64,000 nt of DNA from Naegleria gruberi (Eukaryota), in the NCBI GenBank assembly GCA_000004985.1, contig GG738873.1. The stretch is one strand, 5' to 3'. The translations under genes and the position numbers were made by a program. The notes beneath the pieces were generated by a model. It ran no database searches. It saw only the letters and a program-made list of their open reading frames with translations, and was not told the DNA's origin. Positions within the stretch are counted from its first letter, which is position 1. Each line of letters opens with the position of its first letter. Positions 93-52,720 of the stretch are shown one piece after another.

Positions 93-3000
93 TTATTTGA
101 ATAATTGAACAGTTGTCATTTCTCTGGTGGCTTGAACTTGCTTGATAATTCTAAATTCCTCTGTCAAAACAAATCTAGAATAGGTATCCATCAAATTGTA
201 AACAATATCCGTCATTAGATCCATAATAACCTCATTGGTGGCAGTCTTTAACTCGGCAACTTCGCTTCCATTGAGAGTATTAATGTTAGTATTGAGAAGA
301 GTATTGTGGAGAATCAAGTACTTTCTTCTCGTGATTGAATTGATATTGACAGACATTTCAGAAGAGGAATCAATGTGAGTTTTGAAAAGTTCATCCATCT
401 CTGTAACAACCCTGTCCCATTCCCCAATATTCGCATTTGAAGGAGAAATGACATCTGAAAAATCTTGCTTGAATTTTTCCAAACGAATCCAAATAATATA
501 ATTCTCCAAACTCATCTCAGTTTTGGTGTATTGACGGAATAATTTCAACAAGTACTTGTTTTGTTTGAGAGTCAAAACCTCAAATTTTTCATCAAACTCT
601 TGGAAGGCATTGGCTTGCTTTTTAGTGAACCATCCTCCCTTAGTAAATTCAGTCTTGAGAGCCCAAACAACAACAAATCCACCAAATGCAATAATCAAAC
701 AAATAGTCATTAAAGTTTCAAACAAGAATATAACACTATCCATCATGTCAACTATGTCGTTATTGGTAGAGTCGCCAGAGAATCTCAAACTCAAAGTTGA
801 AAAACCAACCAAGTAAGAAACTATAAAGAAAAGCATTGCTGCCAAATAAAAGATAACCTCCGTTCTGAACATTAGTACATCATTTGAAATGAATGTTTTG
901 AAAATGGATCCTAGTAATCTACCTCCTTTTGCAAGCTCCTGAGAAAAATTATTCTTGACGAGTGCTTGTTGGGAATTAGCAGTTGAAGAATCGATTACTA
1001 ATGAATTCATTTCCTCAGCAATATCAACAACTTCATCTGACATTTGTTTGTTTGACTTTTCGAGAACTAGATCAGTAACATAAATAGCAATAATCACCAT
1101 AGTCATTATTATCAACAAGATGAAAATAGATACCGTTGAAGCAGTTGAGAATTGAGCAGTGGTAAGTGAGCTATCTCCTCTTAAAATAACAAAAATGGAA
1201 AAGTAGATGAGAAAAAGTACTCCAGTAATTATGCTAGTAACGACAAGGACAGTCTGCTTTTTCAAAATATTCAGATACTTGACCATGGAATCCTTCTTGT
1301 TTGTTTCTATTGCTTTCATCATCCACTCATAAAAATACCTGTGAACTAGATATCTGAGTGACATTATCATGTAACACCAAATAGCAGCAGCTCTCATCGA
1401 TGTAGAAATGACAGTGCAAATAGAAACCATTAAATCCAATCTCAATGAAGGGAAATATGAGTAATGGAGCAGGATTGATTTGGAAAATATTCCAACAGCT
1501 AAATTTTCAATAAACAGAGAGGCAAGAGCCAAATGTGGGGTAATGTATCTGGACTTGACAGGTTGTTTCTTCCTTAATATAATTAACAACGCAAATATTA
1601 TGCCAATAACTACAAGAAATATGGAAGAAATGGCAATATTAGCAGTGGAGAGAGAATCATGAATACTCCTATCATTCCTCTTATAGGGAGCTTCTGAGAA
1701 ATCGATAAATGCTGAGAACCTTGTTGTGTGATCACAATAGCATGTCACCGTTCCATTACTGTATGAGGTACTACAACCGTTTTGAAGCCATTTCATTTCA
1801 GTTTCATTCCAATATCTACAGACATAGGTCTTGACAATCTCTGGGTTCGAAGAGTTACTGTTAAGTGTGGAATTGATTAAGGTTTCATTGATAGTCCCCT
1901 CATCAATGGTAAAAGTTAGGGTGATATTCTCAGATAGATTGTTGAGTGGAACATAGGTACCACTTACTAGGGTCTTGAATTGTAAAATTTTGGCACCAGG
2001 AAAAGAAATAGATTGATCAGTGAAAAACTGTTCAGGAGAGGATTCAAATCGAACAATGCCAAAACTAGTAGCAGAAGGTCCCAACGCAGCACCAATAGTA
2101 GAGGGAATAGCCACACTGTGAGAGGCATCAATAGGGCTACTTCCTCTATTCTCATCTAAAACAACGAGTACTACAAAGTTTTTCGTTTCAACTTTGACTG
2201 GTTCTTTTTTTCCCTCATTCTTATTGGAGATTGCAATAGCAGAGAGTGAGCTATCAATGGCCTTTTGCATTGTTTTCAATTCGAGTGACAATTCCACAAG
2301 GTTAGAGGCAATTAGTAATAAATTAGTGGAAATATTGTTGATGATGATGGTAGCCGAATGTAATTTTTTCAAAGTGTCTGAGAAATCATTCACTGTTTTG
2401 GAAATAGCTTCCTTGCCAGCTTCTGTGAGATAGTTAGTATAGACAGAGTCGGTAATAACCAATAGAGTTTGGGTTAAAAAGATACTCTGTTCAGTGGTAA
2501 TGTTTGAGGTCTTGTTTGTGAGGGTACTAGCTATAACCTCAATCAGTTCTGTCTTGTTGGTTACATTTTGTAGATTGTTAGCAATTTGATTAATAGATCC
2601 AATATCTAGCTCTTTAATCCTACTTGGATTATCCGTTACTTGTTTTAGAGAGAAAACTGATATTGACCTTGATTGAGAACTATTACCAACAATGATATCA
2701 TAGTTTCTATCAATAATTGTGGCTTCAATTGAATATTCTCCAACAGTTAGAAGTGGCAATTTCCAGGTTAGAGAGGTTGTGTTTTCAGAGTAGAAATAAT
2801 TGCCATTCCTAATTGTAAATGTTATAATCAAGGATTCCTTCTTATTGTAATAGGTTGTAAAATTAGAGTCTGCAAAGCTTAAAATAACATGAGTGTTGTT
2901 GGACTGAGTATCCAACATGGAGCTATCTGTCAATGAGAGGATTACGTTCTCACCAGCTATTAACAGTGCTCCACAATCAAAACCATCGCTATTAGAATTG

Positions 3001-3860
3001 CAACTACAAACATCTAAAATCTGGCATTGGCCCTTTCCTTGACAGACATCTGAGCTATTGGACAATATCGAAAAACAACTAGTCAACCCACAATTCGATC
3101 CAAAATGTCCTGCAGAACATGAACAAACATCTGGAAGTGTGCAATTACCTCTCCCAGAACAAACCAATGAGCTCTGATAATCCACAGAGAAACACGAATA
3201 GGATGAACAATTAGAATCATAATATTCACTCTGACAAGTACATGAACCATTGGCCGTACAATTTCCACGTCCAGAACAAACAAGAGGTGATTCCTGTGTC
3301 AATGAATCACAAACATACAAGTTATTGCACTTATTTCCATAATAACCAACACTACATGAACAATTGTTCTTGGAAATGCACTTTCCATGACCAGAACATA
3401 CAGAAGAACTTGATGAAGACTGTCCATAGCATTTGTAATTATCACCATCATCGTCGTCATCGCCTTCATCGTCATCACTCTCGTCTGATATCGAACGGGA
3501 GTGGTGGGTCTTGTCTCGATAAATTATGTTGTTGTTGATGGTGGGTATTTCTTGGCCCTGTACCAAAATTATCCAATTAGAATTGTGTTTGAGAAACCTT
3601 CTCGGTGATGGCAACACATTATTATTATTATTCGAAATTAATAGATTCCAATAATTACTATTCGAAAATACATCCGATGAAATTAGCAAAAAGCAAACAG
3701 ACACTATGAAAATTAGAACAACACATAAGTTCCTCCTCGCCGAATAATTCCAACATAATTTTAAAACTGATGATATGTAATTCTCCTTCCGCATACATGA
3801 TAATTTCCCCTCCAAAATACAACAAGCATCATCTTCCGTATTACTTCTAACAAGTAGCAT
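93..3860 (-). CDS. Adhesion-GPCR-like receptor: signal anchor, tenascin-type EGF repeats, GPS-like motif, 7TM, C-terminal RGS-like domain
   Basis: 1255-aa ORF; repeated Cys-rich EGF-like units (CSGHGKC..CSCSVGYYGNKC, CSGRGNCT..CTCQSEYYDSNC etc.); 'CRYWNETEMKWLQNGC..CYCDHTTRFSAF' GPS-type motif immediately before seven hydrophobic helices; C-terminal 'EMSLENYIIWIRLEKFK' resembles RGS core (SxENLxFWxAxExFK). Possible N-terminal intron not resolved. Confidence 0.6.
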   Translation of the reverse strand: MLLVRSNTEDDACCILEGKLSCMRKENYISSVLKLCWNYSARRNLCVVLIFIVSVCFLLISSDVFSNSNYWNLLISNNNNNVLPSPRRFLKHNSNWIILVQGQEIPTINNNIIYRDKTHHSRSISDESDDDEGDDDDDGDNYKCYGQSSSSSSVCSGHGKCISKNNCSCSVGYYGNKCNNLYVCDSLTQESPLVCSGRGNCTANGSCTCQSEYYDSNCSSYSCFSVDYQSSLVCSGRGNCTLPDVCSCSAGHFGSNCGLTSCFSILSNSSDVCQGKGQCQILDVCSCNSNSDGFDCGALLIAGENVILSLTDSSMLDTQSNNTHVILSFADSNFTTYYNKKESLIITFTIRNGNYFYSENTTSLTWKLPLLTVGEYSIEATIIDRNYDIIVGNSSQSRSISVFSLKQVTDNPSRIKELDIGSINQIANNLQNVTNKTELIEVIASTLTNKTSNITTEQSIFLTQTLLVITDSVYTNYLTEAGKEAISKTVNDFSDTLKKLHSATIIINNISTNLLLIASNLVELSLELKTMQKAIDSSLSAIAISNKNEGKKEPVKVETKNFVVLVVLDENRGSSPIDASHSVAIPSTIGAALGPSATSFGIVRFESSPEQFFTDQSISFPGAKILQFKTLVSGTYVPLNNLSENITLTFTIDEGTINETLINSTLNSNSSNPEIVKTYVCRYWNETEMKWLQNGCSTSYSNGTVTCYCDHTTRFSAFIDFSEAPYKRNDRSIHDSLSTANIAISSIFLVVIGIIFALLIILRKKQPVKSRYITPHLALASLFIENLAVGIFSKSILLHYSYFPSLRLDLMVSICTVISTSMRAAAIWCYMIMSLRYLVHRYFYEWMMKAIETNKKDSMVKYLNILKKQTVLVVTSIITGVLFLIYFSIFVILRGDSSLTTAQFSTASTVSIFILLIIMTMVIIAIYVTDLVLEKSNKQMSDEVVDIAEEMNSLVIDSSTANSQQALVKNNFSQELAKGGRLLGSIFKTFISNDVLMFRTEVIFYLAAMLFFIVSYLVGFSTLSLRFSGDSTNNDIVDMMDSVIFLFETLMTICLIIAFGGFVVVWALKTEFTKGGWFTKKQANAFQEFDEKFEVLTLKQNKYLLKLFRQYTKTEMSLENYIIWIRLEKFKQDFSDVISPSNANIGEWDRVVTEMDELFKTHIDSSSEMSVNINSITRRKYLILHNTLLNTNINTLNGSEVAELKTATNEVIMDLMTDIVYNLMDTYSRFVLTEEFRIIKQVQATREMTTVQLFK

Positions 3861-16400: not shown

Positions 16401-17651
16401 ATGGAAAAACAAGCATTTGTGAATGTGCAAGCAAATTCACTCGAATTTCTTGCTAAATATTTGGAGGAAAACAGACAAACTCCAATGGATCATGTAATTA
16501 TTAATAATGAATTATATTCAATTATAGCATCGGGAGGAAATAGAGGGTGCACCATTTACAAAACAACTAATTTTGAAAGCAGCACCAAATGGCAATCCAC
16601 CTTGATCGGAGAATTTGAATTAATTAAAGAGAATCAATCTGATGATGATTTATCCCAAATGTATTGCCTCTCTATTGATAGGAATATTTATATAATTACC
16701 ATCTCTAATAATTCAATGAGTCGTATTCATCGAATTTCTATTCAAAAGTCTGATGAAGAGGAAAATTATGTGGAAACCTTGTTTGAGGATAGTGGTGGTG
16801 ATTTTATTGGAATTGATCCAGGGCTGATTGCAGATTCAAAGAGGAATTGTTTATATTTCATGTTTGGATTGACTGTGGCTGATTCGGCCAAGAAGAATAT
16901 TACCAGATTTGATATTAATACTGGATCTTTTTCTGTTATTGGTGAATTGGATAGGGAATTCTACTGTTTATCCTCAACATTTTGGAAAGATAGATATATA
17001 ATCTTAGTTGGAGGTCTAACAAATTTGACACCTTCATCAGATATTTTGGCTTTTGATGTTGAACAAGGAATTTGGAAGCAAATCTATAGAGCTAAATCAA
17101 TGCCAGTAATTTATCCACGATACATGTCAGGAATTACAATGGTTTCCAATAATTATGCATCTCAATTTCATCCTGAAATTCCAAAAGATTCCAATACTGA
17201 TACGATATTTATTTATGGTGGATTTTTGGATTATGAAGTGGAAGTTAGTGACCATTCAAGATTTTTCATTAGTAGACCCTCTCACGAAGTCATTCTCCAC
17301 TATTTGAAAGAAAGTGAATGGATCGATAATATGGAATCTGATTGTGAGAAGAGAATCCCAATCAGTTTGACTGATATTTGTACACCAGAAGATAGAAAAC
17401 TTGAGAAACTACACATAAGAAGAATAAAAAGTGGCATAGAGGATGACGATGCAGAAGACAGCAATGAATTCAAGATTTTACCCACTTGCACATTTTCCAC
17501 AATACTCCCTCTGAAAATTAGAGGAAGGCAGGAATTATTAATTTTCAGAAATACTGAACAAGTCTTAAAAATTCAATTATTCCACAATAATCCATTCCAC
17601 AGAGAGTCGATGAATAAGAACCCAGATGTCTCAATTCTTTTTTCAGAATGA
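16401..17651 (+). CDS. Kelch/beta-propeller-like hypothetical protein
   Basis: 416-aa ORF with Kelch-like 'ILVGG', 'IFIYGGF' blade motifs; terminated by TGA at 17649. Confidence 0.5.
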   Translation: MEKQAFVNVQANSLEFLAKYLEENRQTPMDHVIINNELYSIIASGGNRGCTIYKTTNFESSTKWQSTLIGEFELIKENQSDDDLSQMYCLSIDRNIYIITISNNSMSRIHRISIQKSDEEENYVETLFEDSGGDFIGIDPGLIADSKRNCLYFMFGLTVADSAKKNITRFDINTGSFSVIGELDREFYCLSSTFWKDRYIILVGGLTNLTPSSDILAFDVEQGIWKQIYRAKSMPVIYPRYMSGITMVSNNYASQFHPEIPKDSNTDTIFIYGGFLDYEVEVSDHSRFFISRPSHEVILHYLKESEWIDNMESDCEKRIPISLTDICTPEDRKLEKLHIRRIKSGIEDDDAEDSNEFKILPTCTFSTILPLKIRGRQELLIFRNTEQVLKIQLFHNNPFHRESMNKNPDVSILFSE

Positions 17652-17705
17652 ACATTGTACAACTTCCGTGTTGTAATGTTGGAACTAGGAAAAAGCCAAA
17701 AAAAA

Positions 17706-18719
17706 ATGTCTTTACATGATGATGATGAACCTGTTACACTTTTCCTAATTGATTTTAGATCGAGAACATTGAATTATTGTATTAATAATTGTGATTATGC
17801 CGATGCAGATGAAAATAACAACATTGCACTCATTCAACAAGAAATGGAATGGTTAAAGAAAAGCTTTAGAAAGCCAAAAACTTTATTTTCCTATCAATTC
17901 GAAAATCCTCCACGAATTTCCTTACCAGAAACTGAGCTCCGATTTGATGTTAAAATTTCATATAGATACGATTGTTTGATTGTTATTGCATCAGACATTT
18001 ATGTTTTTGATCGAAAGTCGAAATTATTGATCAATTCTTTTAAATTTGCAAATGTTGTGCTATCAACTTTGGATGATGAACATGATGAACTGTACGTCAT
18101 GATACCAGACCGAACAAATTACAAAGTTGAGAAGTATTCATTAGGACAATTTATCAGAAGCAAGGAGAAGGAGAAAGCACAACCAATTTGGTCAGTAACT
18201 GCATGCTCTAATCCGTATGGTGCTGTTGTGTTTAATGGTTTGGAGCACAGATATTTGATTATACTTGATAACTCCAGTGATGAAAGTAATTTGATAATAG
18301 TGGATTGTGAGGATGGATCCTTAATTGAAAACACAATTTTTACAGTTCCTCCGAATGGCTATTCGCTAGGAATGATCTCAAGGAAGGAAATAATTGTTGG
18401 GTGCTCAGATATTATTGGAATTTATGAAATTGATGAGAAATCATTTGGTGCCACAAGACAAGCTCTCAATTTGATAGTTTCTGCATCTATGAAGGACGCC
18501 ACAGAATTCTATTCAATTATTCATGACGAATTGAATCGAAAGATTATCCTTTCAAATGCTGATAGTAACTCAATTACAGTTATGAGGAGAGACAATTTAG
18601 AAACAGTACAAACCCATAATTGTGAGGGCTCTGTACGGGGTGTTTCAGGATTGTGTTTGGATGAATATACGGGAGAGCTTTATGTATGCTTTTCAAATGG
18701 ATTGTTAATATACAAGTAG
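17706..18719 (+). CDS. Hypothetical protein (possible beta-propeller); begins 55 bp after the upstream gene's stop, same frame
   Basis: ATG in 'aaaaaaaaATGtct' context; ORF is open in frame back to 17655, separated from the upstream ORF by a single TGA. Confidence 0.5.
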   Translation: MSLHDDDEPVTLFLIDFRSRTLNYCINNCDYADADENNNIALIQQEMEWLKKSFRKPKTLFSYQFENPPRISLPETELRFDVKISYRYDCLIVIASDIYVFDRKSKLLINSFKFANVVLSTLDDEHDELYVMIPDRTNYKVEKYSLGQFIRSKEKEKAQPIWSVTACSNPYGAVVFNGLEHRYLIILDNSSDESNLIIVDCEDGSLIENTIFTVPPNGYSLGMISRKEIIVGCSDIIGIYEIDEKSFGATRQALNLIVSASMKDATEFYSIIHDELNRKIILSNADSNSITVMRRDNLETVQTHNCEGSVRGVSGLCLDEYTGELYVCFSNGLLIYK

Positions 18720-19162: not shown

Positions 19163-19411
19163 TTATGGCAAACCAGGCCAATCCTCTACATATTGGATCT
19201 TAAAATCTGGCCAATCTTCAACAATTTGAATCTTATAATCAGGCCAATCTTCAACAATTTGCCACTTTCCAACACTATCTGGCCAATCATCAACTTGTTT
19301 AACCTTGAGATCTGGCCAATCTTCAACAATTTGAACTTTGTAATCTGGCCAATCTTCTACGAATTTGATTTTGCCATAGATTTGGGCAATTTGATCTTTG
19401 GAAATGGTCAT
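19163..19411 (-). CDS. Small repeat protein: seven tandem 11-residue 'VEDWPDxKxQI' repeats
   Basis: 82-aa ORF MTISKDQIAQIYGKIKF[VEDWPDYKVQI][VEDWPDLKVKQ][VDDWPDSVGKWQI][VEDWPDYKIQI][VEDWPDFKIQY][VEDWPGLP]; ATG start, TAA stop. Confidence 0.5.
   Translation of the reverse strand: MTISKDQIAQIYGKIKFVEDWPDYKVQIVEDWPDLKVKQVDDWPDSVGKWQIVEDWPDYKIQIVEDWPDFKIQYVEDWPGLP
19172..19365. repeat. 33-bp tandem repeat (x6-7) encoding the EDWPD units
   Basis: periodic 'ggccaatcttcaacaatttgaa(t/c)tt..' 33-nt units visible on the plus strand. Confidence 0.7.
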
Positions 19412-19529: not shown

Positions 19530-19892
19530 TTACAATGAATTTATTTTTAAAACTACCCGTGCCTGAACAATACGCCCTTGAATTGTGTATGGAAATAATC
19601 TGTCGTATCTGTTTGGAATTTTGTAAAAATCAACAACTTCCTTATCAATTTCTATTTTGGATTCATCTTCGAGTAATTCTATTGCTGATGGTCTCTTATC
19701 AACTTCCTCTTCGAGCATTAAAGGAAGAACTCTTTTGATGGTTTCATTTTCAATTTCAAGTTCGTTCAAGCATTGAACTACATTCGAATGATTTTCTAAA
19801 TTTCTTACTCGTTTTCTAGATAAAACTTCCAACATTACTAATCCTAATGAGTAAATGTCACTTTCCGGAGATTCAACAATTCTGGTTGTCAT
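19530..19892 (-). pseudogene. Protein kinase C-lobe fragment (subdomains VIII-XI only), truncated at a 5S rRNA gene
   Basis: 'TTRIVESPESDIYSLGLVMLEVL..KRPSAIELL' matches the GTxxYxAPE / DxWSxG / ..RPs.. kinase subdomains VIII, IX, XI; no room for subdomains I-VII because the 5S gene starts 14 nt upstream and the 14-3-3 gene follows. Confidence 0.55.
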
Positions 19893-19906
19893 TAAATAGA
19901 TAAAAA

Positions 19907-20026
19907 GACTACAGCACCACAGGTTCCCAAGTTGTCTCCAACCTCAGTACTGATGTGGCTCGACGATGCTTAACTTCTCAAATCGGACGGGATGAGGTGC
20001 ATTCATCGTGATATGGCCGTAGCCAT
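19907..20026 (-). rRNA. rrn5: 5S ribosomal RNA gene (copy 1)
   Basis: Reverse complement reads ..GGCTACGGCCATATCACGATGAATGCACCTCATCCCGTCCGATTTGAGAAGTTAAGCATCGTCGAGCCACATCAGTACTGAGGTTGGAGACAACTTGGGAACCTGTGGTGCTGTAGTCTTTTT; helix I pairing 5'GGCTACGGC/3'GCTGTAGTC; followed by T5 Pol III terminator (plus 19902-19906). Confidence 0.9.
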
Positions 20027-20077
20027 TCATAATCTTAAATTAAGGTTTATTTATCGTTTTTCAGCTTTGTGTAGACA

Positions 20078-20999
20078 CTAATCATCATCTGGTCCAATTT
20101 CAGTTTCACTCGACCACAAAAATAAATTATCCTTCAACAATTGTAGTATCAGTACAGCATCCCTTTCATCACCATATTCATCTTGCTTTTCCAATAATTC
20201 CTCAATGTGTGTCATGGCTAGATCGAATTCTGGACGTGCAATACTAATTGCCTTTCCAACATCAAACATTATGTCAGAATAAAAATATGAATAGTTTAGA
20301 ATAAGCCCCAATCTAATAGAATTCGTGCAAGGTAAGAGATTGATCAGCTCATATGATTTTTCATAACTTTCCAAAGCTTTAGCTTTCCAATCTGAAATTC
20401 TAAATCTATAATCCACATTGTAAATATATTTGAAAAAATCTCCTTTAACTTTCCAATAAAAAACAGAATCCACCAATGACAAACTTTCCACCTTCAAAAC
20501 TTGATCAATAATCTCATTAATTTCATAACAATAGTGCTCTGTTTTTTCCTGAATTTCTTTCACAAATCTTTCACACAACCCAACTTGCCAATCTTCTCCC
20601 TTATTCTCATGTCTACTCTGCACATTCACAACACTTCTAAAAGCCTTACTATAATCATATAATACATTTTTATAGGCAACCACTAATAGAGATCGTTCCT
20701 CAATTGTGGGAATGGGTTCATGAACCGATTGAATAATTATTTCCAAGATTAAACTCTTCATTTCCGAAACCATATCTTGATCATCAATATCATCAAATAT
20801 ATCAATTATTATTATCATCATCAATTATTATTAATAATAATAATTAATAGCAATGATGATGAATTATTATTATATTGGATGTTTAAATATCATCAAACTC
20901 ACCTTCATAACGACCTGCTTGTTCACATAATTTTGCATTGAATAATTTCTCATTCCGAGAGGCAATGAAAGGTTGTTGTAATGATGGTGATAAAGACAT
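20078..20999 (-). CDS. Highly divergent 14-3-3-like protein; 2 exons (20999..20893, 20776..20078)
   Basis: Exon 1 'MSLSPSLQQPFIASRNEKLFNAKLCEQAGRYE' (cf. AKLAEQAERYDDM); exon 2 'ERSLLVVAYKNVL', 'VFYWKVKGDFFKYI', 'NSIRLGLILNYSYFYSDI', 'AVLILQLLKDNLFLWSSE' match 14-3-3 helices 3, 7, 8, 9; minus-strand donor GTGAGT at 20892, acceptor ..gatcaag at 20777. Confidence 0.75.
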
Positions 21000-21433: not shown

Positions 21434-24400
21434 ATGTCAACAGTAACCAAAGTCAACTCTCTGTTGCTTTGGGCTCAGAATGCCACAAAAAACTACGACA
21501 ATGTAGAAATTAAAACCTTCTCATCGCCTTCGTTTGCTAATGGCTTGGGTTTTTGTGCTATTATTCATCACTTTCGTCCGGATTTAATTCCCTATGGTAA
21601 GTAGTGATGATTTTTTGTATAAACCAAGTTGTGTTGATTTTTGTGATGATTTTTTGTGTTGATTTTATTTGAAATGGTGATTTTGTGGTGTGATTGGGTG
21701 TGATTCATTTCGGATAACACTTTCGAATATGTATTGTTTCGAATACAGATACATTGACCACTTTGAATGCCAAACACAATTTAGATTTGGCTTTTAGAGT
21801 AGCAGAACATGAATTGGGATGTACACAATATTTGGAAACAGAAGATTTGTTAAATTGGTTAGTAATCAACATCATCATTGTGAAAAGTATTAACAAACTT
21901 TGGACGAAATTAATTCGAAACTTGGGGAAAAAAACAGTGCTCGACCAGAACCAAAAACCATTCAAATGCAACTCAATGAATATCGAAGAGTTTTAGGAAG
22001 TGCCAATGAAATTCATAAAAAGAATTCTGATTTTGGAGATTTAGTCAAAGATTACGAAGATGCACAATCATTGAAGAGATCGGCAACAATGCCACCAAAG
22101 AGTTTTGAAAATCCGAATACTTTATTGAATTCTTCATCGTCTTCCTCTCCTCAGGGAGCTTCATCTGCCAATTTGGGAAGCAAACTTTCAATTCAATCGA
22201 GTGGTGGCAGTTCAGATGATCCAAAGAAGGGAATTGTTGCAAGACAGAAAGAGGCCTATTTGCAAGAAACTAAACCATCGATTACCATTACGAGTAGCTC
22301 ATCTCAATTTGATCAATTAAAGAATATGGATGATGCCAAGAAGAAAATTAAAGAATTATACGAACAAGTGTCCAGTTTGAGAGATGACAGTGATAGTATT
22401 AGAAGGGAGAATAGTGATTTGAGTATGAAATTCAGGGAAGCTCAACATTTGAAAGATGAAACTGAATTGGTATTTAAACAACAAAATGAAAATCTCAAAA
22501 AGAAAATTTCACAACAACGTCAAGAAATTGAGGACGAGAAAAATTCCAAACTCTCACTGGAAACATCAATTACCAAATTGAAACAAGAATTGGAAACTTT
22601 GAAAAAGGAAAGCACTGAATACAAGAAGAAGATTGAAACTTTGGAAAAGTTACAAGAATCTAATAAGGAAAGTTCTAAATCTGCTTCAACTGATCTTCAA
22701 AAACAAGTTGCCGAGCTCAATAATCTACTCAAACAAAAGGAACGTGTCATTTCTCAATTCGAAACTGAAAAAATTTCAACTTTCAAGGATTTACAAAACA
22801 AACTTGCTGAAAAGGAAAAGGATATTCAAAGTTTGAAGAATTCTCTTAAAAACCTAACAGAGGAAGCTGAAAAGACTAAGATTGAAAAGGAATCTTTAAT
22901 GAGTGAAATGAGTCAACAAGAAGGACTTTCTGGTGAGCTCAGCAAATTACAAGACTCACTGAAACAAATTACAATGGATAAACAAATTGCCGAAAGAAAA
23001 GCTCAAGACGTTGAAATGCAAAGAAATGATATTACCCAAAAACTCACTCAAGTACAAAAAGAACTTGAAGACTCCAAAAAGAACCTTTCTACCAAGTTGA
23101 CCGAATCTCAAAAATTAGAACAAGAATCAAAGAGTTTGAAAGAGCAAAATTCAAAACTCTCTCAAGAAATTTCAGAAAAAAACAAGTTACTCGAAAAGGA
23201 AAAACTCAATTTGAAGGAAGGTAACGAAAAGGTTCTCACTGAAAAACAAAAACTTGAAAAGGAAGTTGAAGATTTGAAAAAGCAAATTGCCAAATATATT
23301 GAAACTTCAAAGGAATTGGATAAGGCCAACAATGAAACCAAGAAATTCAGTGATATGGTCAACAAGCTCACCACCGAAGTTTCCACACTAAAGAAGGAAA
23401 AGGAAACTCTCAAATCAGAAAAGGAAAATGTTGAGCTCTCAATGAAACGTCAAGCAACTGAACTAGAGGAAAAGTATCAAGAAAAAATCGATCAATTTTT
23501 GGAAAAGAACAAAATGTCCTCAAAACAACAACAATCAGTTCTTGATTTACAAATTGAAGATCTCAGAGATCGTATTGAAGACCTCAAGAGAGAGAAACAA
23601 CTCGTTAAAGATGAGCTTAATCAAGTAGAAAGTGCCAAGAATCATGAGATTACAGAATATAAGAACAAGATTAGTCAACTTGAATCAGATCTCTCTAAAA
23701 AGTCCTCTGTCTCTCCATCCGTTGCCAATTTACCACAACTCATCGAACAAGAAAGAAAGGAAAGATTTGTTTTGGATCAATCCATTCTCTGTTTTGAAAA
23801 TTGCACATTCTCTAACCAAATTCCAACACCAGTCAAGTCCATCTATCATGCTCTCAATTTCTGGTTAGAATCTAGTGAAACATTTGGAGTCAATCTTGTC
23901 AATTCTCTCAGTTACAAGTTTGGTTCTTACATTACCTATGATTTACAAAAATCTGCTTACTGGCTCAATGTCATGATTAGAATTTTACACTTGTTGAAGA
24001 ATGAATCAGAATATGAAAAGAAGATCAAGTCCATTCTCAAGAATAACATTAACGAAAAGCAATTTACTGCCCTCACCACTAACGAATCAATTACAAAGAA
24101 ATCAGAATTCCTTGTACTTTCTCATTTCTCACTTTCTAATGATGGAAAAGTTCAACAACCATCCATTGACAAGTTTTTAATTTCTCTCTCACAACTCATT
24201 TATGATTCCTATTTTGAAATTATTAAGAGTATGCTCTTGAAGGCCAAACCTTTGATTTTAGAGAAATTGTTTGGTGTTACAAAGAATAATCCAACTCCAA
24301 CCTTAGGTAAAGTTAGTGGAGATGTCAAGATTGATGTAATTGTAAAGAATATGGCTTCATGGATGGATCAAATTAAGGATAGTTATTTGGATGCTCGTTT

Positions 24401-25231
24401 GATTATTCACATGTTTGAATCTTTGGCTAACTTGATGGATTCTTACATCTTTAATCAATTTATTACTTTTATCAGTTCTGAGAAGGAAAAGACAAGAAAT
24501 GCCAATCAATTAAGAGATTCCACTATGAATCATGCCATTCATCTCAAGATGTCTGTTTCATTCTTGGAAAGTTTCTTCTTTGAGGAGCATTTGACAGCTG
24601 GTCTTGATATTCAAAATCTTTTCCATCAAACAAGAGTATGTATTTATTTCAATATCATTATTTACAATTAATTCCAAAAAATTAATAGGAAGCTGCTGAT
24701 GTTTGTGTACTAGGTCAAAAAGATTTACTTCAAAAAGGAAATGATTTACGTGAAATTGTCTGTCCTCATTTGGTTACTTCACAAATCTCTGTCTTGCTAT
24801 TGGAAAGTACAACTAGTGCTCAAAACTTGGTTGTTCCAACTCTGGCACCATGTGGATTTACTGACCCAACTACTTTTGCTAAACAAACATCACCACTCTT
24901 TGATTTTGAATCCAAATTTATGACAATTCAATCCTTACAAACAGTTCAATATCCATCCATTTTTGATAAGAACAGACAAGAGTATCCATTCCTGTATCAT
25001 TTGGCAAGGAAGAGTTCAACATCTTCTTCGACAGCAACAGAAGAAGAGGACGATGTCAGTAATTCGTCATGGACTTCTCCATCCAAACAAAACATTCTCT
25101 CCAGCAGCAGTTCAGCAACATCATCCACCAACTCATCTCCTTCCTCTTCTACAAGTCAACAAGAAAAGAGAAGAGGTCAAAGAATGGAAAGATATCAGAA
25201 ATTAGATATGAATAATGGACTTTTCGAATAA
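21434..25231 (+). CDS. Calponin-homology (CH) domain protein with long coiled coil and C-terminal globular (DIL-like?) domain; at least 4 exons
   Basis: Exon 1 (21434..21596) '[47 protein letters not shown]' is a canonical CH domain, continued after intron in '[37 protein letters not shown]'; 21900..24650 is heptad-rich (E/K/L/Q) coiled coil; C-terminal about 250 aa globular; introns at 21597..21747, ~21858..21937, 24651..24693. Confidence 0.65.
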
Positions 25232-36412: not shown

Positions 36413-39400
36413 CTAGAAATTTTGAATGTCAGCACTTGTTGGTCTCATACTTGGTTCCTTTGAGACCATAGTCACAATAAAATTGCAAAGCTTCTCAGAG
36501 TAACCTCTTGATATCAAGTGTTCCATTGTTCTGTCCAACACCACTTCTTCCTTATCGTATAATAATTGAGCTGTAATGTTTAAATCTAAGGAATCATTTG
36601 CCATGGCCTGAATGAGTGAAACTCCAAGTGAAAATATATCAGCACTATAACTGTATTTTCTAGAAAAGACCTCAGGTGCCATATATTGCAATGTTCCTGC
36701 AACTGAATTTTGAGTTTCTCCAGTTTCCTTTGCCTCTCCATAATCACCAATAACCACTTGGATTTCATCCAATTCACGGTCCAATTTACTATAGAAAATA
36801 TTACGTGGTTTGATATCTCTGTGAACAATTAGTTTCTCTTGGTGAAGATAGTTCAAACCATCTCCAAGTTGTTTCATGATGGAGATGATCATCTTCTCAG
36901 AGACAATCTTTCCATCTTGTTTCAAATCTTTCAAGGCATGTTCCAAGTCGCCTTCATAAAATTTCATTACAATACAAATAGATTGAATAATCTGTGCTTC
37001 AAAGAATTCATAAACTTCAACCAGATTTGCATGTCTGTATGAAAGTGTTTTGGAACATTCATCAATAATTTTAGAATGTCTGCTTTGATCATAACTAATA
37101 GTCTTGATGGCAACTGGCATGTCATTCTTTTTAGAATCCAAACAGAGATAACATTTACCAAATGCACCCTGACCAATAACTTGTTGAATCTTGTATCTAT
37201 CTTTGAGCAAAGAATGATCTGTGTTTTGAGTAGAAGAAGTAGTAGTTGTGTTAGTATTGGAAGTATTGGAAGACAATTGGTACAAGGAATTGTTAAAGGT
37301 ATCGCTTGGGAAATCTGAAGTCACTGATGTACTATTATTGGCTGTTTGAGTGACATTTTCATCAATGGTTGTTATCATTTCAATTGGTTTTTCCTTAGTA
37401 ACCAGTGGTTTGCTTTTCTTCTTCTTTAATTTCACAATGAGACAGATGGTGACAATGATTGCAAGCAATATTAACAATACCAATAATGTTAAACCCACAA
37501 CCAATCCAACAATCAATCCAATGTTAGAATTAACTGGAGTAGTCACTTGTCCATTCTTGGATGCAAGTGGAGAGACATAGGTAGGAGGAACAATTCTATT
37601 CTCACAACTCAATCCACTATATCCTTCCAGACATGAACAACCATTACTTGATGTACATGTTCCATTTCCACTACAATTTTTCACGGCATCACAAGAGAAG
37701 AGGGAACAATCGAGACTTCCCTTCCATCCACTAGTGCATGAGCATGTATTATTACTCACACAGAAACCATGTCCTGAACAGGCATTCAATGTTTCACATG
37801 AGAAGAGAGAGCAATCAGAACTTCCTCTCCAGCCAGAATAACACGAACAATTGTTCATTACACAATCTCCATGTCCACTACATTGATTCTGTAGGTCACA
37901 ACCAAAAGAGATTGCTCTCACCTTTCCATTACTTGTGTCAGCAATGAAAATTTTAGATTCATCAGCAGAGAGAGCTACTCCCATTGGTCCATAAAATTGA
38001 GTTTCCAAAGGGTGCAAATTCTCTCCATTGTATCCATACAGTGGTGCAGTACCAGCAATGGTTATCAAAGTTCCATTCTTAAATAATTTCCTTATGGCAT
38101 GGTTTTGGGAATCAGAAATCAATAGTTCATCATTGGATAAAATGGCAAGACCAGCAGGATATCTCAACATTGAATTAACACCACTCAAATTCTCCCCACT
38201 ATATCCATCCACCCCAGTTCCTGCAATGGTAATGAGGGTTCCATCATTGAGAATTTTTCTCACTCGATGGCCTTCATACTCTGAAAAAATAACTTCATTA
38301 TTAGAGGTCAGTACAATTCCATATGGATTATTAATATTGGCACTAGTTGCTAATAGCCCATCTCCATTGTAGGTAGAAGTACCGGTACCAGCTACAGTAA
38401 TGATGGTCTGATTGAAAAACACTTTTCTAATTCGATGATTTCCAGAATCGGTAATGTACAAATCTCCATTTGTGGATCTGGCAATTCCTTTTGGTAAATT
38501 TAAATGAGCACTAGTAGCAGGAATGTTATCAGCATTGTATCCAGTAGTTCCAGATCCAGCTTTTGTTATTACAATTCCACTAGAAGATATGAGATATTTC
38601 ACAGTTGACGAATCAACAAAATAGTACTCCCCTACATTGGGCACGAGTGGAGATCTGGGTGAAATATAACTTGGAGTAATGGTTGTGATAATTCCACCGA
38701 GTGAAATCTTTCTCAATCTATAATTTCTTGTGTCGGCCACAATAACCTCATTATTTGGAGCGACAGCAACCGATTCTGGACCAAAGAGTTTTGCCTTCAC
38801 TGCCTCAATATTATCACCATTGTAGCCGAGATTGGAACCTGTTCCAGCAACAGTAGTGATGATATTGTTTGTGTTAATCTTTCTGACTCTGTAATTTCCA
38901 CCATCGGAAATGAAAATCTCCCCACTCGAGGATATAGCAATGCCTCTTGTGACTCTGAACATGGCATTGGATGCCAATTGATTGTCTCCAGCATAGCCAT
39001 ATGATGATCCAGCTATTAATGTTGCAACTCCATTCGTTTGAATCATGTACACTTTATCTGAAACAGTGACATAGAGAGCACCAGTGATTGGAGATATTGC
39101 CATTCCATTGACTGTATTAGTCTGGCCAGAGAGTTCAAAAGTAGTGAACATGACTACACTGGTGCCATTATTGAAAACCTTTCTAATCTTGTCATATTCT
39201 CCAATGTAAACTTCTCCACTATTAGAGATGGCAATGGAAGTGGGGAAGTTTAACTGTGCATTAGTTGCATCCTGTACCACAGTGGATGTATCTGTTCCAC
39301 CTCCAGCGAATGTTCTAATGATACCATCCGTATACGAAACTACACGAATTTTGTTATTTGAGGTTTCTGCAATATATAAATTATTATTCACAGGAGAGAT

Positions 39401-39961
39401 GACAATTCCACCTGGTGTATTCAATAGTGCATTGGTAGCGACTCCATCATCACCGATACTCCCTGGTACACCAACTTGACCAGCGTATGTGCTAATCAAA
39501 TTACTAGATAATATGACCTTTCGAATAACATGACTATTCGTATCAGACAAGTACATGACATCACTATTCTGAAAAGCAAGTGCACTAGGATAATTGAAAC
39601 GAGCCAAAGTTGCTATAGTTGTCGTGACAGAACCAGGAATACCCACACCAGCAATTGTTTTAATTTTACCACTACTTGCCACTACTTGTCTCACTCGACA
39701 ATTTATCTTGTCAACTATGAAAATGTCACCATTGTTACTTGGAGAGAGTGCAAGACCATCAGGTATGGCAATTTCTGCCTTGGTAGCATCAATGTTATCA
39801 CCATTGTAACCATTGGGATAACTACCTGCTATGGTTTTTACATGGTATAAAGATTGACCGTGGACAATTGGTTGGGCAGCAAGAAACACCAAGTGAAACA
39901 AAAACAACAATGGTAGCAAGAATGTTGAGCTATTAGTGTTGTTGAGTTTCAATTTGTCCAT
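36413..39961 (-). CDS. Receptor-like protein kinase: signal peptide, multiple NHL repeats, tenascin-type EGF repeats, single TM, cytoplasmic kinase domain
   Basis: NHL-like blades ending in ..RVRKI/..RIRKV/..RLRKI (x8 or more); 'CSGHGDCVMNNCSCYSGWRGSSDCS..CSGHGFC..CSGNGTC' EGF units; TM 'IGLIVGLVVGLTLLVLLILLAIIVTICLIV'; kinase motifs 'IGQGAFGKCY','VAIKTI','HRDIKPRNIF','GDYGEA','YMAPE','DIFSLG'. Confidence 0.85.
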   Translation of the reverse strand: MDKLKLNNTNSSTFLLPLLFLFHLVFLAAQPIVHGQSLYHVKTIAGSYPNGYNGDNIDATKAEIAIPDGLALSPSNNGDIFIVDKINCRVRQVVASSGKIKTIAGVGIPGSVTTTIATLARFNYPSALAFQNSDVMYLSDTNSHVIRKVILSSNLISTYAGQVGVPGSIGDDGVATNALLNTPGGIVISPVNNNLYIAETSNNKIRVVSYTDGIIRTFAGGGTDTSTVVQDATNAQLNFPTSIAISNSGEVYIGEYDKIRKVFNNGTSVVMFTTFELSGQTNTVNGMAISPITGALYVTVSDKVYMIQTNGVATLIAGSSYGYAGDNQLASNAMFRVTRGIAISSSGEIFISDGGNYRVRKINTNNIITTVAGTGSNLGYNGDNIEAVKAKLFGPESVAVAPNNEVIVADTRNYRLRKISLGGIITTITPSYISPRSPLVPNVGEYYFVDSSTVKYLISSSGIVITKAGSGTTGYNADNIPATSAHLNLPKGIARSTNGDLYITDSGNHRIRKVFFNQTIITVAGTGTSTYNGDGLLATSANINNPYGIVLTSNNEVIFSEYEGHRVRKILNDGTLITIAGTGVDGYSGENLSGVNSMLRYPAGLAILSNDELLISDSQNHAIRKLFKNGTLITIAGTAPLYGYNGENLHPLETQFYGPMGVALSADESKIFIADTSNGKVRAISFGCDLQNQCSGHGDCVMNNCSCYSGWRGSSDCSLFSCETLNACSGHGFCVSNNTCSCTSGWKGSLDCSLFSCDAVKNCSGNGTCTSSNGCSCLEGYSGLSCENRIVPPTYVSPLASKNGQVTTPVNSNIGLIVGLVVGLTLLVLLILLAIIVTICLIVKLKKKKSKPLVTKEKPIEMITTIDENVTQTANNSTSVTSDFPSDTFNNSLYQLSSNTSNTNTTTTSSTQNTDHSLLKDRYKIQQVIGQGAFGKCYLCLDSKKNDMPVAIKTISYDQSRHSKIIDECSKTLSYRHANLVEVYEFFEAQIIQSICIVMKFYEGDLEHALKDLKQDGKIVSEKMIISIMKQLGDGLNYLHQEKLIVHRDIKPRNIFYSKLDRELDEIQVVIGDYGEAKETGETQNSVAGTLQYMAPEVFSRKYSYSADIFSLGVSLIQAMANDSLDLNITAQLLYDKEEVVLDRTMEHLISRGYSEKLCNFIVTMVSKEPSMRPTSADIQNF

Positions 39962-45604: not shown

Positions 45605-46267
45605 AGTTTTAAGAAAAGATAAAGTTGCAATATGTCTGAGTTTTCTGGATTTTCAAAAAGTGAAATATTCCGAATGTTAAATTGAAATACTTATTACCAG
45701 GTTAGCTAGCCATAAAATTTGTCATCATACATGCTCGGAATTTGACAAATACTCAATTTTACTCTGATTGAGATTTCTTTGTGCAATGATTTTTCAATTA
45801 ATTAAAAGAGTTAGGTGGCTCCTAATCTGACGGTTTGTGCAATGTCTGATTGAAACCAAATCAAAGTGAGCAATTAAGCTCAAACCCTGATCCCTACAAA
45901 AAATTGAGTTAATAGTAGATGCAACCCGTGAGCTGCTTTCAGCTATTAAACTGAAAAGAAAAGATACTACACTCGATCAAAGCCAATTGGCCGAGAAAGA
46001 TGGTTTTGAGAATTGCATAAGGAACAGAGTATTTATTCTGTTGGTTGTGGAGTGAAGAATGGCAAAATGTTTGTGGTATTTTAATAAATTTTAATGCCTT
46101 GTTCGACTATTGATATTGAACATGTAGCGAATCTTAATAATCAATATTTATGATGGAGCAGTTCAATCAGAACTTGGAAAGAATGTGAGAAGCAAACTTG
46201 ACTAACAATTAAGGGGGATGCATTGATAAGTAAAACGTGAACTAGTGAAAAAAACAAATAAACAAAA

Positions 46268-46387
46268 AGACTACAGCACCACAGGTTCCCAAGTTGTCTC
46301 CAACCTCAGTACTGATGTGGCTCGACGATGCTTAACTTCTCAAATAGGACGGGATGAGGTGTATTCATCGTGATATGGCCGTAGCCA
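46268..46387 (-). rRNA. rrn5: 5S ribosomal RNA gene (copy 2)
   Basis: Same 5S sequence as copy 1 with 3 substitutions (..GAATACACCTC.., ..CCTATTTGAG..); T-run terminator on minus strand (plus aaaaa 46264-46268). Confidence 0.9.
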
Positions 46388-49753: not shown

Positions 49754-51243
49754 TCATTCTTTTAAAACCCAATTTGAAAGAATATCTGGATCTACAGTAA
49801 GCAAATCATCAACAATTTCTCCTGCCACCACTTTTTTGAAATATGGAATGGAAGTGACTTTACATTCTCTGAAAATGTCCAACATTTCATCATTATCCAG
49901 TTTGTAAAATTTGAACTTTGAATTCAAATTGGACAATTTTCCAAATTGTGGAGAAACCATTTTACAAGGGCCCTAATTAGATTTGTACACAATTTAGAAT
50001 AACTACTTACACACCAGGTTGCTGTAAAATAAATAATTGCATTTTCTTTTGAAGAGAAAATAGCCCTAAAATCCTTTTCTTCTGTTATTGGAACTGCCTT
50101 ACCCATGATTTTCGTTTCCAAGTCCAATTTTAATGTTATCAATTCATTAGATTCTCTCAATTGTCCAACAAGTGTCATGACTTTCTCAATAGATCCTTCC
50201 TCAATATTTAATTCAATGCTATTTGATAATGTATTGACAAAATCAATGCATGATTCTGTTCCCTCTCCTTCTAAGCTCGTTATAAGTTCTCTCACCGATG
50301 CAACAATCTTTCTTGATTGTAATTTTGAAGAGTAGAATTTATCAAACTCCCTACATGGTTCTATATACTTGTCTATTGGGAAATTATTGGCACAATTCAA
50401 ATGCAAGAATGTGAGTAGCTCTTCAGTTAAAACCTCTTCTCCACACGATAATAATTGTCTTTTTAAGGTTGAATCTGATCGAGACAACCGAAGAACTGGA
50501 ATATAAGGAAGATTAAATTCATCTGACATATCATTCTTTTCAATGTCCATGCAAAGAATTTGAATTTTCTCTCCACCTTCTTCAAGTAGTTGAGCCACAA
50601 ATTCTATTACTGGAAATAAATCATCACAAGGCTCACAATTATTAATATAATTGACAACTAACACATCCATACTTGATTTCCAAACCAATTCATCATATGC
50701 AGAGTGAACCAATTTCTTCAAACTCTTCCAACCTTCAAGTTGATCGTTTAGAGATCTCTTCTCGCTCTTGTAAAATACCTTCTCCTCTCCAGATCTGATT
50801 CTATCAAGCCAACCCAATATTGGTTCAATCTCAAAAGTACCTCTATACAAAAACTTGAACACTCTCTTTGAAAAATATCTATACAATAAGAGTGCTGGTT
50901 CGAGAAGTTCAGAAATACCAAAACACTCTGGTAGATTATCCGACTCACTCAGAGGAGCATTAATCCAAACAATATCAACAACATTGGTTTCTTGGGTATC
51001 CTCATCCAACAACAATTCCATGGAGAATAATTTCCTTTGAGTGGCCTCATCTTCCGATTGTAGGATGGTTTCAATTTTTGAAAGGAAATCTTGTTCTGTT
51101 CCCTTATTAAAACAATACATTACACATCTACCATCCAATCTGGCTGCTTCTGGCGAAGAAATGGAAATCAATTTGGACATTTTTTTGAGTGAACTTTTTC
51201 TCCTTGATAATCCATTTATGAAAAATGTTCTTCCTGTTTTCAT
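49754..51243 (-). CDS. Thioredoxin-domain-containing protein (long N-terminal region + C-terminal Trx fold); 2 exons with 38-nt intron 49973..50010
   Basis: Splicing GTAAGT(50010)..AG(49973) reconstitutes the thioredoxin active site '..IIYFTATWC|GPCKMVSP..FYKLDNDEMLDIFRECKVTSIPYFKKVVAGEIVDD'. Confidence 0.7.
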
Positions 51244-51268
51244 TCAAAATGGTGTTTAAAAGATGAAA

Positions 51269-51388
51269 AGACTACAGCACCACAGGTTCCCAAGTTGTCT
51301 CCAACCTCAGTACTGATGTGGCTCGACGATGCTTAACTTCTCAAATCGGACGGGATGAGGTGCATGAATCGTGATATGGCCGTAGCCA
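51269..51388 (-). rRNA. rrn5: 5S ribosomal RNA gene (copy 3)
   Basis: Same 5S sequence; variant ..CACGATTCATGCACC.. in loop B region; oligo-T terminator (plus aaaa 51266-51269). Confidence 0.9.
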
Positions 51389-52720
51389 TTCATAATATTA
51401 ACACCATCCTTATCAAAATCCTTACTATATGAATTCGGTAATCATCCATTCGAAGCCATGTTGCAATATTCATGATCAAAGAACATTCATTGTATAATCC
51501 ATCAGAAAGGTAACACCTAGTAAAAGTGTCTACAGTATTTGTTAGAACCGCTACTGTAGATGATTTCTGACAGAAATAGCAACCATTTTTGTGATGCTTG
51601 GAACATTCCGAACAAACAAGGATTATCGCATGAAGCTTCCTCTTTTATCGCAATCAGTTGGTTCTATATTCACTAGCGTAACTCTCAATTTCTTGAACCT
51701 TTCTCAACAAAGTCCTTCATCTCCGATAGATTCTGTGATGATTTTTCAACATTCCCATTGAGGGTTTCATTTGTTACTAAGGGAAATAGTTAATTTGCTG
51801 AACCATCCACTTTGCAACCCACACATCACAACAACAGTAAGGAAAATTGCACATTCAAAACAGTGCCCTCAATTGACTTCAAGTGGACCGTTTGAAAGCA
51901 TCCTGCAAGACATAACATGGCCATGACCAAATTAATAACTTACCATTATGAAGGGAGTTTTTAGATAACGCCCACAAATAATCAGCTACAGTAAAGGAGA
52001 AAAACTGTAGTTTGAATATTATCAAGGAAGTAAATAAACGTGTTCTCCTTGCTTGAATGATCAATATGTTAATATATTCGATATGGAGGAAGGATGATTA
52101 TGATTCACTTCTACACAGAATGTTTCAAACTTTCCATTTATAAAGCAGGCATCAACATTCAATGTTGATATTTTCATAAGCAACCATTTCATCACAACAT
52201 CACATTATCCGGTAAAGTTTCAATGCCATCATGAGTTGCATCAAACATGAGCCTTCAAAATAGTGAAGGTTGCACTTTTGGCGCTTGATTTTTTTTGCAT
52301 TGTTGTTGCGTTGTTGCTCACATCAGCACATTCCAAGCTTCAAAGATGATTCAAAACGAAAACAACCTCCGAAAGCAAAAAAAAATCGGTTATATTGTAT
52401 TTGAAAAGCTGCTTTTCTCATATCCGATAATATTTTAGTGTCTTTTTGATTGTCGTCGAGACGAGTATTAGTAATTTTTAATAGCTACTACTACTTCTTT
52501 TGCTTTATCGGCTTGACACAATCTTCTTCCGTTCAACTTTGAATATCGGGTTTTATTTGGTTTTTTTTGTAGGAGGACTTGGATTGACTACTTTTTGGTG
52601 ATTGATACTATTGATAATAACATATATTGATACGACTACAACTTTTTTCAATACTACTTATTACTCGCCAGATATATTCACCTAAAAATAGTTGTCATCT
52701 TTATTAATAGATTAAAAGAA

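Follow-up and report, generated by a model that had tools for sequence, protein, structure and literature searches.

The 120-residue open reading frame that abuts a 5S rRNA gene on contig GG738873.1 of Naegleria gruberi amounts to a truncated gene copy of an ordinary kind, in a compact genome, and does not clearly record 5S mobility, since similar tail-only copies occur elsewhere and one of them, the metagenomic P0003, has no 5S gene nearby. The window analysed was the whole stretch of 64,000 nt. The overall best explanation, with a probability of roughly 0.6, is that the reading frame, here called P0001, represents a 5'-truncated, tail-only paralogue of a Heterolobosea kinase-like gene, in which an older event at the DNA level removed the catalytic half and a later one created the junction with the 5S gene. 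P0001 corresponds to the last exon of such a gene minus its first ~20 codons.

Gene order around the reading frame

The features at the junction, all on the minus strand, are as follows.

19530-19892, minus strand: ATG-to-stop reading frame of 120 aa, NAEGRDRAFT_68557 / EFC43526.1 (P0001)
19893-19901, minus strand: spacer of 9 nt, ATCTATTTA, from the 5S terminator to the ATG
19906-20024, minus strand: 5S rRNA gene copy 1 (Rfam RF00001, 105.4 bits against a gathering score of 38)
20025-20077, minus strand: spacer of 53 nt from the 14-3-3 stop codon to the 5S gene, containing the 5S upstream element ATTATGAAT
20078-20999, minus strand: 14-3-3-like gene, with exon 2 at 20078-20775, an intron at 20776-20902 (GTGAGT...AG) and exon 1 at 20903-20999

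On the minus strand the order is thus the 14-3-3-like gene, the 5S gene and P0001. The sequences of P0001 and of EFC43526.1, annotated in N. gruberi as a 'predicted protein' on a scaffold of 461,873 bp, agree at 100%; a peptide such as VLPLMLEEEVDK exemplifies its product. This identity places the DNA in a heterolobosean amoeboflagellate and replaces the dictyostelid context that the preliminary description had assumed. Forty ATG-initiated frames of at least 120 aa were observed in the window, against 0.1 per shuffled window.

The 5S gene is full length, covering model positions 1-120, and its Pol III terminator is TTTTT at 19902-19906. The ATG of P0001 lies 14 nt past the last 5S base, as had been described, and 9 nt past the T-run, so that the 9-nt spacer falls inside a 3' flank of ~10 nt in which the three 5S copies of the window resemble one another. 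The other small-RNA genes there are 5S genes at 46268-46386 and 51269-51387, one U2 gene and one tRNA gene. A Kelch gene and a coiled-coil gene lie further out, at 16401-18719 and 21434-24671, respectively.

Beyond the 5S gene, the expected 14-3-3-like gene was found to end at 20078. Its reading frame at 20078-20824 matches the Pfam 14-3-3 profile at 3.5e-42, and the spliced model improves this to 1.1e-47 with profile coverage of 2-223. The annotated model P0028 (227 aa) is missing exon 1. Apart from itself, no homologue of the 14-3-3-like protein was found at E<=1e-10.

Kinase ancestry of the fragment

P0001 was confirmed as a kinase-derived C-terminal fragment of a Heterolobosea-specific kinase-like family. 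It contains only subdomains IX-XI (helices alphaF-alphaI) and the tail of the family, in which three blocks stand out.

19821-19859, minus strand: residues 12-24, DIYSLGLVMLEVL, subdomain IX (DxWSxG-type motif and alphaF), aligned to DVYSFGVVLLELL of PDB kinases
19671-19697, minus strand: residues 66-74, KRPSAIELL, subdomain XI, with Arg67 invariant in the family alignment
19590-19637, minus strand: residues 86-101, VVDFYKIPNRYDRLFP, family-specific tail motif (F/Y)(F/Y)...RY...FP, C-terminal to the kinase domain

Residues 12-24, with DIYSLG at residues 12-17, form the most conserved block of the family alignment, and the tail motif is common to P0002, P0003 and P0019 and partial in P0018 and P0029. 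Against the definition of PF00069, subdomain IX and the Arg of subdomain XI are present, while the N-lobe (Gly-rich loop, VAIK Lys and alphaC Glu; subdomains I-III), the catalytic loop HRD..N with DFG (subdomains VIb and VII) and the APE motif of subdomain VIII are absent. Since the Gly-loop, the catalytic Lys, the HxDxKxxN loop, D(F/Y)E and GYRxPE are all missing, the product of P0001 cannot phosphorylate anything.

Subdomains VIII-XI had been assigned to the fragment earlier. The part from IX to XI holds in the family and PDB alignments but subdomain VIII does not, as the 'TTRIVESPE' that had been taken for it aligns just before the DxYSxG motif: 'RIVESPES-DIYSLG' of P0001 pairs with 'GRVSPQS-DVYSFG' and 'TLSTKS-DVYSFG'. 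The genuine GYRxPE of the relatives is located ~20 residues further upstream, ahead of the first homologous residue of P0001.

The Pfam Pkinase profile alone remains below threshold for P0001 (18.5 bits against a cut-off of 31.7, E=0.0014, profile positions 175-260 of 263), so that it is not a member of the whole domain. The kinase homology proposed from the sequence, whose absence would have refuted the earlier interpretation, is nonetheless real. A HMMER search of 1.84 billion representatives with P0001 returned 18 matches, led by P0002 (1e-27) and P0003 (1e-17) and including P0007 (9e-6). Ten of the 18 were examined with Pfam: those that were not kinases scoring above threshold were short members of the family, with a sub-threshold kinase match like that of P0001; the five long matches scanned in this way were clear kinases. 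Furthermore, the family profile matches 125 PDB kinases, including IRAK4, PBL2, BIK1 and TTK, and by sequence similarity P0001 belongs to the Heterolobosea family above other kinases.

Longer members of the family were recovered as well. The 126-aa P0007 is the C-terminus of P0019, the N. gruberi protein NAEGRDRAFT_69812 (EFC42324.1, 668 aa). A search with the family profile added P0029, FDP41_006018 of N. fowleri (E=2.4e-18), and a further member is P0018, ABK040_014959 of Willaertia magna (335 aa). In N. fowleri, FDP41_006018 and FDP41_005955 are annotated as 231-aa models plus an upstream model. These longer members pass the Pfam Pkinase threshold, with scores of 38.2, 60.3 and 65 bits, and carry HNDxKPxN, ID(Y/F)E and GYRxPE. 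The full architecture of the family, with N-terminal region, catalytic loop and C-lobe, is not found in P0001, which equals residues 567-636 of P0019 plus the tail. The proposed search for an intact paralogue therefore succeeded in part: longer members exist, but the closest matches, P0002 and P0003, are themselves tail-only.

It had also been suggested that P0001 weakly resembles the C-lobe of the NHL receptor kinase (36413-39961). A one-to-one comparison gave E=0.11 over 18 aa, which is insignificant, and this gene was rejected as parent or paralogue of P0001.

The AlphaFold2 model of P0001 has a pLDDT of 62 overall and 75-82 for residues 11-70, with values below 50 for residues 1-10 and 98-120. 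Helices were predicted at residues 9-25, 35-44, 50-59 and 70-74, and they superpose on the C-lobes of B-Raf and IRAK4 with a TM of ~0.44 on the query. The top Foldseek matches of the model are kinases without exception, at weak E-values of 0.08 or higher. In kinases the helices alphaF-alphaI normally pack on the core that P0001 is missing.

Search for further exons

An annotated reading frame of this kind could be the terminal exon of a longer gene, for instance one whose transcript begins in the 14-3-3 gene and continues across the 5S gene, which would then be intronic. Such a reading receives some encouragement from the full-length paralogue, which has an intron before its last exon near the place where the short copies begin, and from the neighbouring 14-3-3 model, which is itself incomplete. 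The sequence around P0001 speaks against it. When P0019, P0018, P0029 and 14 other kinases were used as tblastn queries, the only kinase segments in the 64 kb were P0001 and the unrelated NHL kinase (36.4-37.2 kb). No N-lobe sequence is present in the 185 nt upstream of P0001 or elsewhere in the window, in agreement with the earlier remark that there is no space for one, and full-length family members found no kinase homology in the 53-nt spacer at 20025-20077 by tblastn.

The splice signals are equally unfavourable. A scan of the minus strand from 21050 to 19880 for donors of the form GT(A/G)(A/T)GT detected only the 14-3-3 gene's own, at 20902, and the frame of P0001 meets a stop codon inside the 5S gene. 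A fusion transcript of 14-3-3, 5S-containing intron and kinase tail was rejected on these two grounds. Moreover, P0001 lacks the first ~20 codons of the last exon as it occurs in the family. Spliced upstream exons, which had been named as the observation that would overturn the truncation, were thus sought by tblastn and by the donor scan and were not found, and a mis-annotated terminal exon is very improbable.

Tail-only copies and the origin of the truncation

The closest relatives of P0001 share its shape. The tail-only subgroup consists of P0001, P0002 (NAEGRDRAFT_76522 / XP_002668562.1, N. gruberi NEG-M, 109 aa, on a scaffold of 37,377 bp) and the metagenomic P0003 (143 aa), with P0001 being 73-75% identical to P0002 and 45-48% identical to P0003. 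The motifs NLENHS, LPLML and (D/E)KRP are common to the three and were not seen in the longer members. In a neighbour-joining tree of about 109 columns, P0001 and P0002 group with 100% bootstrap and the clade of both with P0003 receives 48%. A single truncation that produced a tail-only gene, followed by duplication, would be the most economical history; the support for the clade of three is weak, however, and the short copies may instead have been truncated independently. In the case of P0002, what is annotated may be just the terminal exon of a full-length gene that has no model.

The genomic context of P0003 shows how one of these copies arose. P0003 occupies positions 2877-3308 of a 9.4-kb metagenome contig (L001), on which no 5S gene was found, and a divergent reading frame of 270 aa begins 270 nt upstream of it. 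By tblastn, neither this contig nor the 64-kb window holds upstream parts of the family. At the locus of a full-length paralogue (L002), an intron of 40 nt lies directly before GYRCPE. The P0003 contig keeps the homologous exon end and donor (TTTTCTAGAG followed by GTAAGT) and a relic intron of 46 nt, and the ATG of P0003 lies inside the relic. Because the donor site and the intron are kept, P0003 is a partial copy made at the DNA level, with its breakpoint in the penultimate exon. A retrocopy origin of the tail-only subgroup was rejected for the same intron relic.

The alignment of P0001 with this contig defines what separates the two copies. P0003 has 23 more N-terminal codons than P0001, including GYRSPE, and its truncation point is located ~70-90 nt upstream of that of P0001. 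DNA homology between P0001 and the contig starts at about position 19892 of the window, where an AAG codon (Lys) of the contig corresponds to the ATG of P0001. An AAG-to-ATG change at the first homologous codon, shown by this alignment, opens the frame of P0001.

P0003 was cut at nearly the same point with no 5S gene on its contig, so that loss of the catalytic half does not need one. We infer that this loss is probably older than the 5S junction and independent of it; the breakpoint on the 5S side accounts for at most ~23 further codons. At least one tail-only copy, P0003, was born when a partial duplication or a deletion of DNA broke the gene within its penultimate exon. In the proposed sequence of events, the DNA at the 5S gene was later rearranged, or the fragment came to lie beside that gene, and this would have removed the ~23 further codons together with the relic intron.

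The 5S junction and the question of mobility

The preliminary description had read the junction as that of a kinase gene decapitated by acquisition of the 5S gene or by a deletion. In its strict form, the proposal is that a full-length kinase gene stood at this locus and was recently cut in place by arrival of the 5S gene or an associated deletion, so that the junction is a footprint of 5S mobility. Several observations are in keeping with it. Homology to the relatives ends only a few bases from the 5S unit, counting its conserved 3' flank, and P0001 is still intact and coding-like, as expected of a recent event. No annotated full-length parent exceeds 44% identity, as expected if the sole copy was destroyed in place, and the 5S copies are dispersed, single and only 2-4 nt apart.

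These observations are outweighed by the layout of the locus and of its relatives. A plain insertion of the 5S gene into a kinase gene is excluded, since what lies beyond the 5S gene is not kinase sequence but the 3' end of the 14-3-3 gene. With a complete 14-3-3 gene in that position, decapitation at this site requires at the least that more than 1 kb was deleted or that the locus was rearranged. The two closest relatives are likewise tail-only, and P0003 was cut ~70-90 nt upstream without a 5S gene nearby. No 5S genes were found at the related family loci L001-L005. A separate exact scan of JGI metagenomes for a 24-nt pattern hit one contig (L006), which contains neither a family frame nor a 5S gene and was set aside as a chance match.

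The 5S copies themselves bear no sign of movement. Copy 1 differs from each of the other copies at 2 of 119 positions, and the three copies differ among themselves at 2-4 of 119. Their flanks align over ~10 nt on each side only, namely the ATTATGAAT-like element upstream and the T-run with a few bases downstream. No significant target-site duplication accompanies any of the copies; the longest flank repeats, of 6-7 nt, were equalled or exceeded in 75-327 of 500 shuffles. The features of a mobile 5S unit or a 5S-derived retroelement, that is, target-site duplications and shared flanks or a shared tail, were therefore not observed.

Close spacing is not peculiar to this junction either. The first ATG of an unrelated reading frame lies 25 nt downstream of 5S copy 3, and from this the tight packing of 5S genes and reading frames looks normal for the compact genome of N. 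gruberi. Copy 2 is situated 116 nt past an LRR gene and 264 nt ahead of the U2 gene. P0001 may adjoin the 5S gene simply because the genome packs its small-RNA genes into very short spacers, and either order of events would fit, the 5S gene arriving beside the fragment or the fragment landing beside the 5S gene. What endures of the decapitation proposal is that the breakpoint adjoins the 5S gene; for the missing catalytic half, a partial duplication or deletion that is older and shared with the 5S-free paralogues is the better explanation. Decapitation in place is unlikely, and no positive sign of the suggested 5S mobility was found, given the missing target-site duplication, the flanks shared over no more than ~10 nt and the equally tight copy 3. 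A literature search on 5S organisation or the kinome of Naegleria returned nothing relevant.

Coding constraint and possible function

The probable older truncation would say how P0001 arose, and the state of its reading frame bears on whether it is still a gene. By truncation relative to its functional relatives P0001 qualifies as a pseudogene; by disabling mutations or an omega of ~1 it does not, the frame of 120 codons being intact. Its codon usage is typical of the genes in the window, with an in-frame score of +0.24 bits per codon, equal to their 24th percentile, and scores of -0.96 and -0.84 in the other frames. Comparison of P0001 with P0003 gave a dN of 0.51, a dS of 1.0-1.26 and an omega of 0.40-0.55, with identities of 0.59, 0.70 and 0.47 at the first, second and third codon positions. 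For the short copies against P0007, dS has reached saturation, which makes the omega values of those pairs unusable. The C-terminal third of P0001 is poorly conserved, at 19-30% identity. Taken together, P0001 appears to behave like a constrained coding sequence, and the omega may largely reflect selection on full-length ancestors.

A contrary reading is that P0001 is a non-functional relic, a partial duplicate neither transcribed nor translated and too young to have gathered stop codons, whose gene model starts at a chance ATG. The family does produce young damaged copies: N. fowleri has three that are at least 90% identical, among which P0035 is 3'-truncated to 159 aa where its relatives have 231 aa, and in a metagenomic homologue of P0019 residues 354-524 have been lost through an internal deletion that breaks the frame. 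The three short copies start at non-homologous codons, which would fit an ORF caller taking the first ATG in a relic. With the 5S gene filling 119 of the 185 nt upstream of P0001, it is not obvious where a Pol II promoter could fit, and the confidence of the AlphaFold2 model is moderate only.

The divergence of the copies speaks against a young relic. No parent is close enough, the best full-length relative being 44% identical over 70 aa. The short copies have diverged from each other by 27-55%, yet all keep the frame to the normal C-terminus of the family, a pattern subject to ascertainment bias in that protein databases take in intact reading frames only. A neutral frame of 120 codons with this AT-rich composition would remain stop-free with a probability of 0.14 at 0.1 substitutions per site and of 0.004 at 0.5, so that neutral survival is low beyond ~0.1 substitutions per site. 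Omega is below 1, with the greatest divergence at third codon positions. The rate is not accelerated relative to outgroups, as in the distance matrix the tail-only copies are no further than full-length P0019 from the N. fowleri and Willaertia members. An untranscribed young relic is a possible but somewhat doubtful account.

Weighing a retained small non-catalytic helical protein against a freshly dead relic, we infer odds close to even, leaning slightly to the retained protein. As a candidate role, such a protein might engage the partners of the full-length paralogues as a decoy or an adaptor. This would make it a putative microProtein-type regulator, a small product of a larger paralogue that binds the parent protein or its partners, for which the signs of constraint are indirect evidence only. 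A broader and still tentative proposal is that Naegleria keeps stand-alone kinase C-lobe tail proteins, composed of alphaF-alphaI and the (F/Y)(F/Y)..RY..FP motif, which would have been born by partial duplication of the last exon and selected as putative decoys or adaptors, with expression of P0001 starting within the 5S gene or reading through it. The literature searched for expression data contained no mention of the locus tag NAEGRDRAFT_68557.

Implications

NAEGRDRAFT_68557 and NAEGRDRAFT_76522 can be labelled as tail-only derivatives of the Heterolobosea kinase-like family and should not be counted in the kinome. A gene fragment lying tight against a 5S gene in a compact genome is not by itself evidence for 5S mobility. 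If the short copies proved to be expressed and constrained, they would illustrate, on a modest scale, how the non-catalytic end of a kinase can give rise to a new small protein.

Comparison with known systems

Dispersed 5S genes are known from compact genomes, for example from filamentous fungi, where they follow birth-and-death evolution. The 5S genes of the window resemble them in being single, nearly identical copies with short spacers and unrelated flanks, and differ in showing no sign of mobility, be it a target-site duplication, a shared flank or an associated element.

Among the family members, P0002 and P0003 resemble P0001 most, in the truncated architecture and in the motifs of the subgroup. 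P0003 differs from P0001 by its 23 extra N-terminal codons, by the relic intron and donor that it kept and by the lack of a 5S neighbour. The longer members P0019, P0029/FDP41_005955 and P0018 share with P0001 the C-lobe pattern SPxSD(V/I)YSLGLV.LE.L ... L..L....(K/E)R(P/S) and the tail motif, at 34-44% identity over the common part. They differ in possessing a long N-terminal region, HNDxKPxN, ID(Y/F)E and GYRxPE, and P0001 starts ~20 residues past the last of these. The C-lobe of TKL-type kinases (IRAK4, PBL2/BIK1, B-Raf) is alike in that the family profile aligns to it from the APE motif through alphaF to subdomain XI, whereas P0001 has alphaF-alphaI only and none of the catalytic machinery.

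Unprocessed partial-duplicate pseudogenes, or truncated gene copies, constitute a general known class. P0001 resembles this class in its homology to a larger family, in the missing 5' part and in the intron relic of its sister copy P0003. It differs in having neither stop codons nor frameshifts, and in codon-position and omega patterns that suggest constraint, either recent or still acting.

Genes and reading frames around the kinase-tail fragment

The fragment, a 120-aa ORF at 19530-19892(-) that holds only the tail of a kinase-like protein, lies among the following features of the window.

16401-18719 (+): a pair of long ORFs, one of 416 aa with Kelch repeats and one of 354 aa that is unassigned
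19163-19411 (-): 82-aa ORF, 118 nt downstream of the kinase-tail fragment
20078-20999 (-): 14-3-3-like gene, annotated as model P0028, 227 aa
20903-20999 (-): candidate first exon of the 14-3-3-like gene, MSLSPSLQQPFIASRNEKLFNAKLCEQAGRYE

The annotated 14-3-3-like model appears to lack its first exon. The candidate exon joins position 20775 through a 127-nt intron (GTGAGT...AG), and once it was spliced on, the Pfam score rose from 145 to 163 bits and the profile coverage widened to 2-223. The protein matched only itself at E<=1e-10, with no other homologue found at that threshold.

The 82-aa ORF is composed of about 6-7 tandem copies of a 33-nt (11-aa) repeat of the type 'K(V/I)QIVEDWPD(Y/L/F)', and its codon-usage score of 0.49 is strongly coding-like. 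No match to Pfam was obtained, and an exact-sequence look-up found no identical sequence in the protein collection. Between the Kelch-repeat ORF and the 354-aa ORF there is nothing but a stop codon, with the second starting 4 nt after the first ends. The pair could represent either a single gene that contains a small intron or two genes packed close together.

The 5S rRNA genes and their neighbors

All three 5S rRNA genes of the window share the same orientation, and a ATTATGAAT-like element is found directly upstream of each. Two of them have the following surroundings.

45810-46386 (-): 5S copy 2 and a U2 snRNA gene
51243-51387 and 51388-52720: 5S copy 3 with its 3' flank, and the stretch that precedes it

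The U2 snRNA gene and 5S copy 2 are on the same strand, spaced 264 nt apart. The first ATG of a thioredoxin-domain ORF of 439 aa lies 25 nt after 5S copy 3 on the same strand, and the ~1.3 kb preceding this copy contains no ORF of at least 80 aa.

Family copies in metagenomes and in N. fowleri

On L001, the metagenome contig carrying the tail-only relative P0003, a short direct repeat 'TTTCGAATTACAATAG' was observed at 2816-2837 and 2877-2900, one copy lying in the relic penultimate exon and the other in the P0003 relic intron/ORF start.

Positions 1-230 of a second metagenome contig, L002, are 99-100% identical in protein sequence to P0019, the full-length N. gruberi family member. Since the sequence here jumps from residue 353 of P0019 straight to about residue 525, with a shift of frame, L002 has lost the N-lobe-equivalent region and the HNDIKPEN catalytic loop. 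The loss points either to an inactivated allele or copy in another strain or to an artefact of assembly.

The family loci of N. fowleri are located as follows.

L004 8001-8696: N. fowleri family locus
L005 6001-6480: N. fowleri family locus

Three copies were found in this species with a mutual identity of at least 90%: two of 231 aa each, both on one contig, and a third of 159 aa that ends prematurely. By sequence match, the model upstream on L004 (6795-7685) resembles the N-terminal region of P0019, and therefore the N. fowleri family gene is probably divided between two annotated models.
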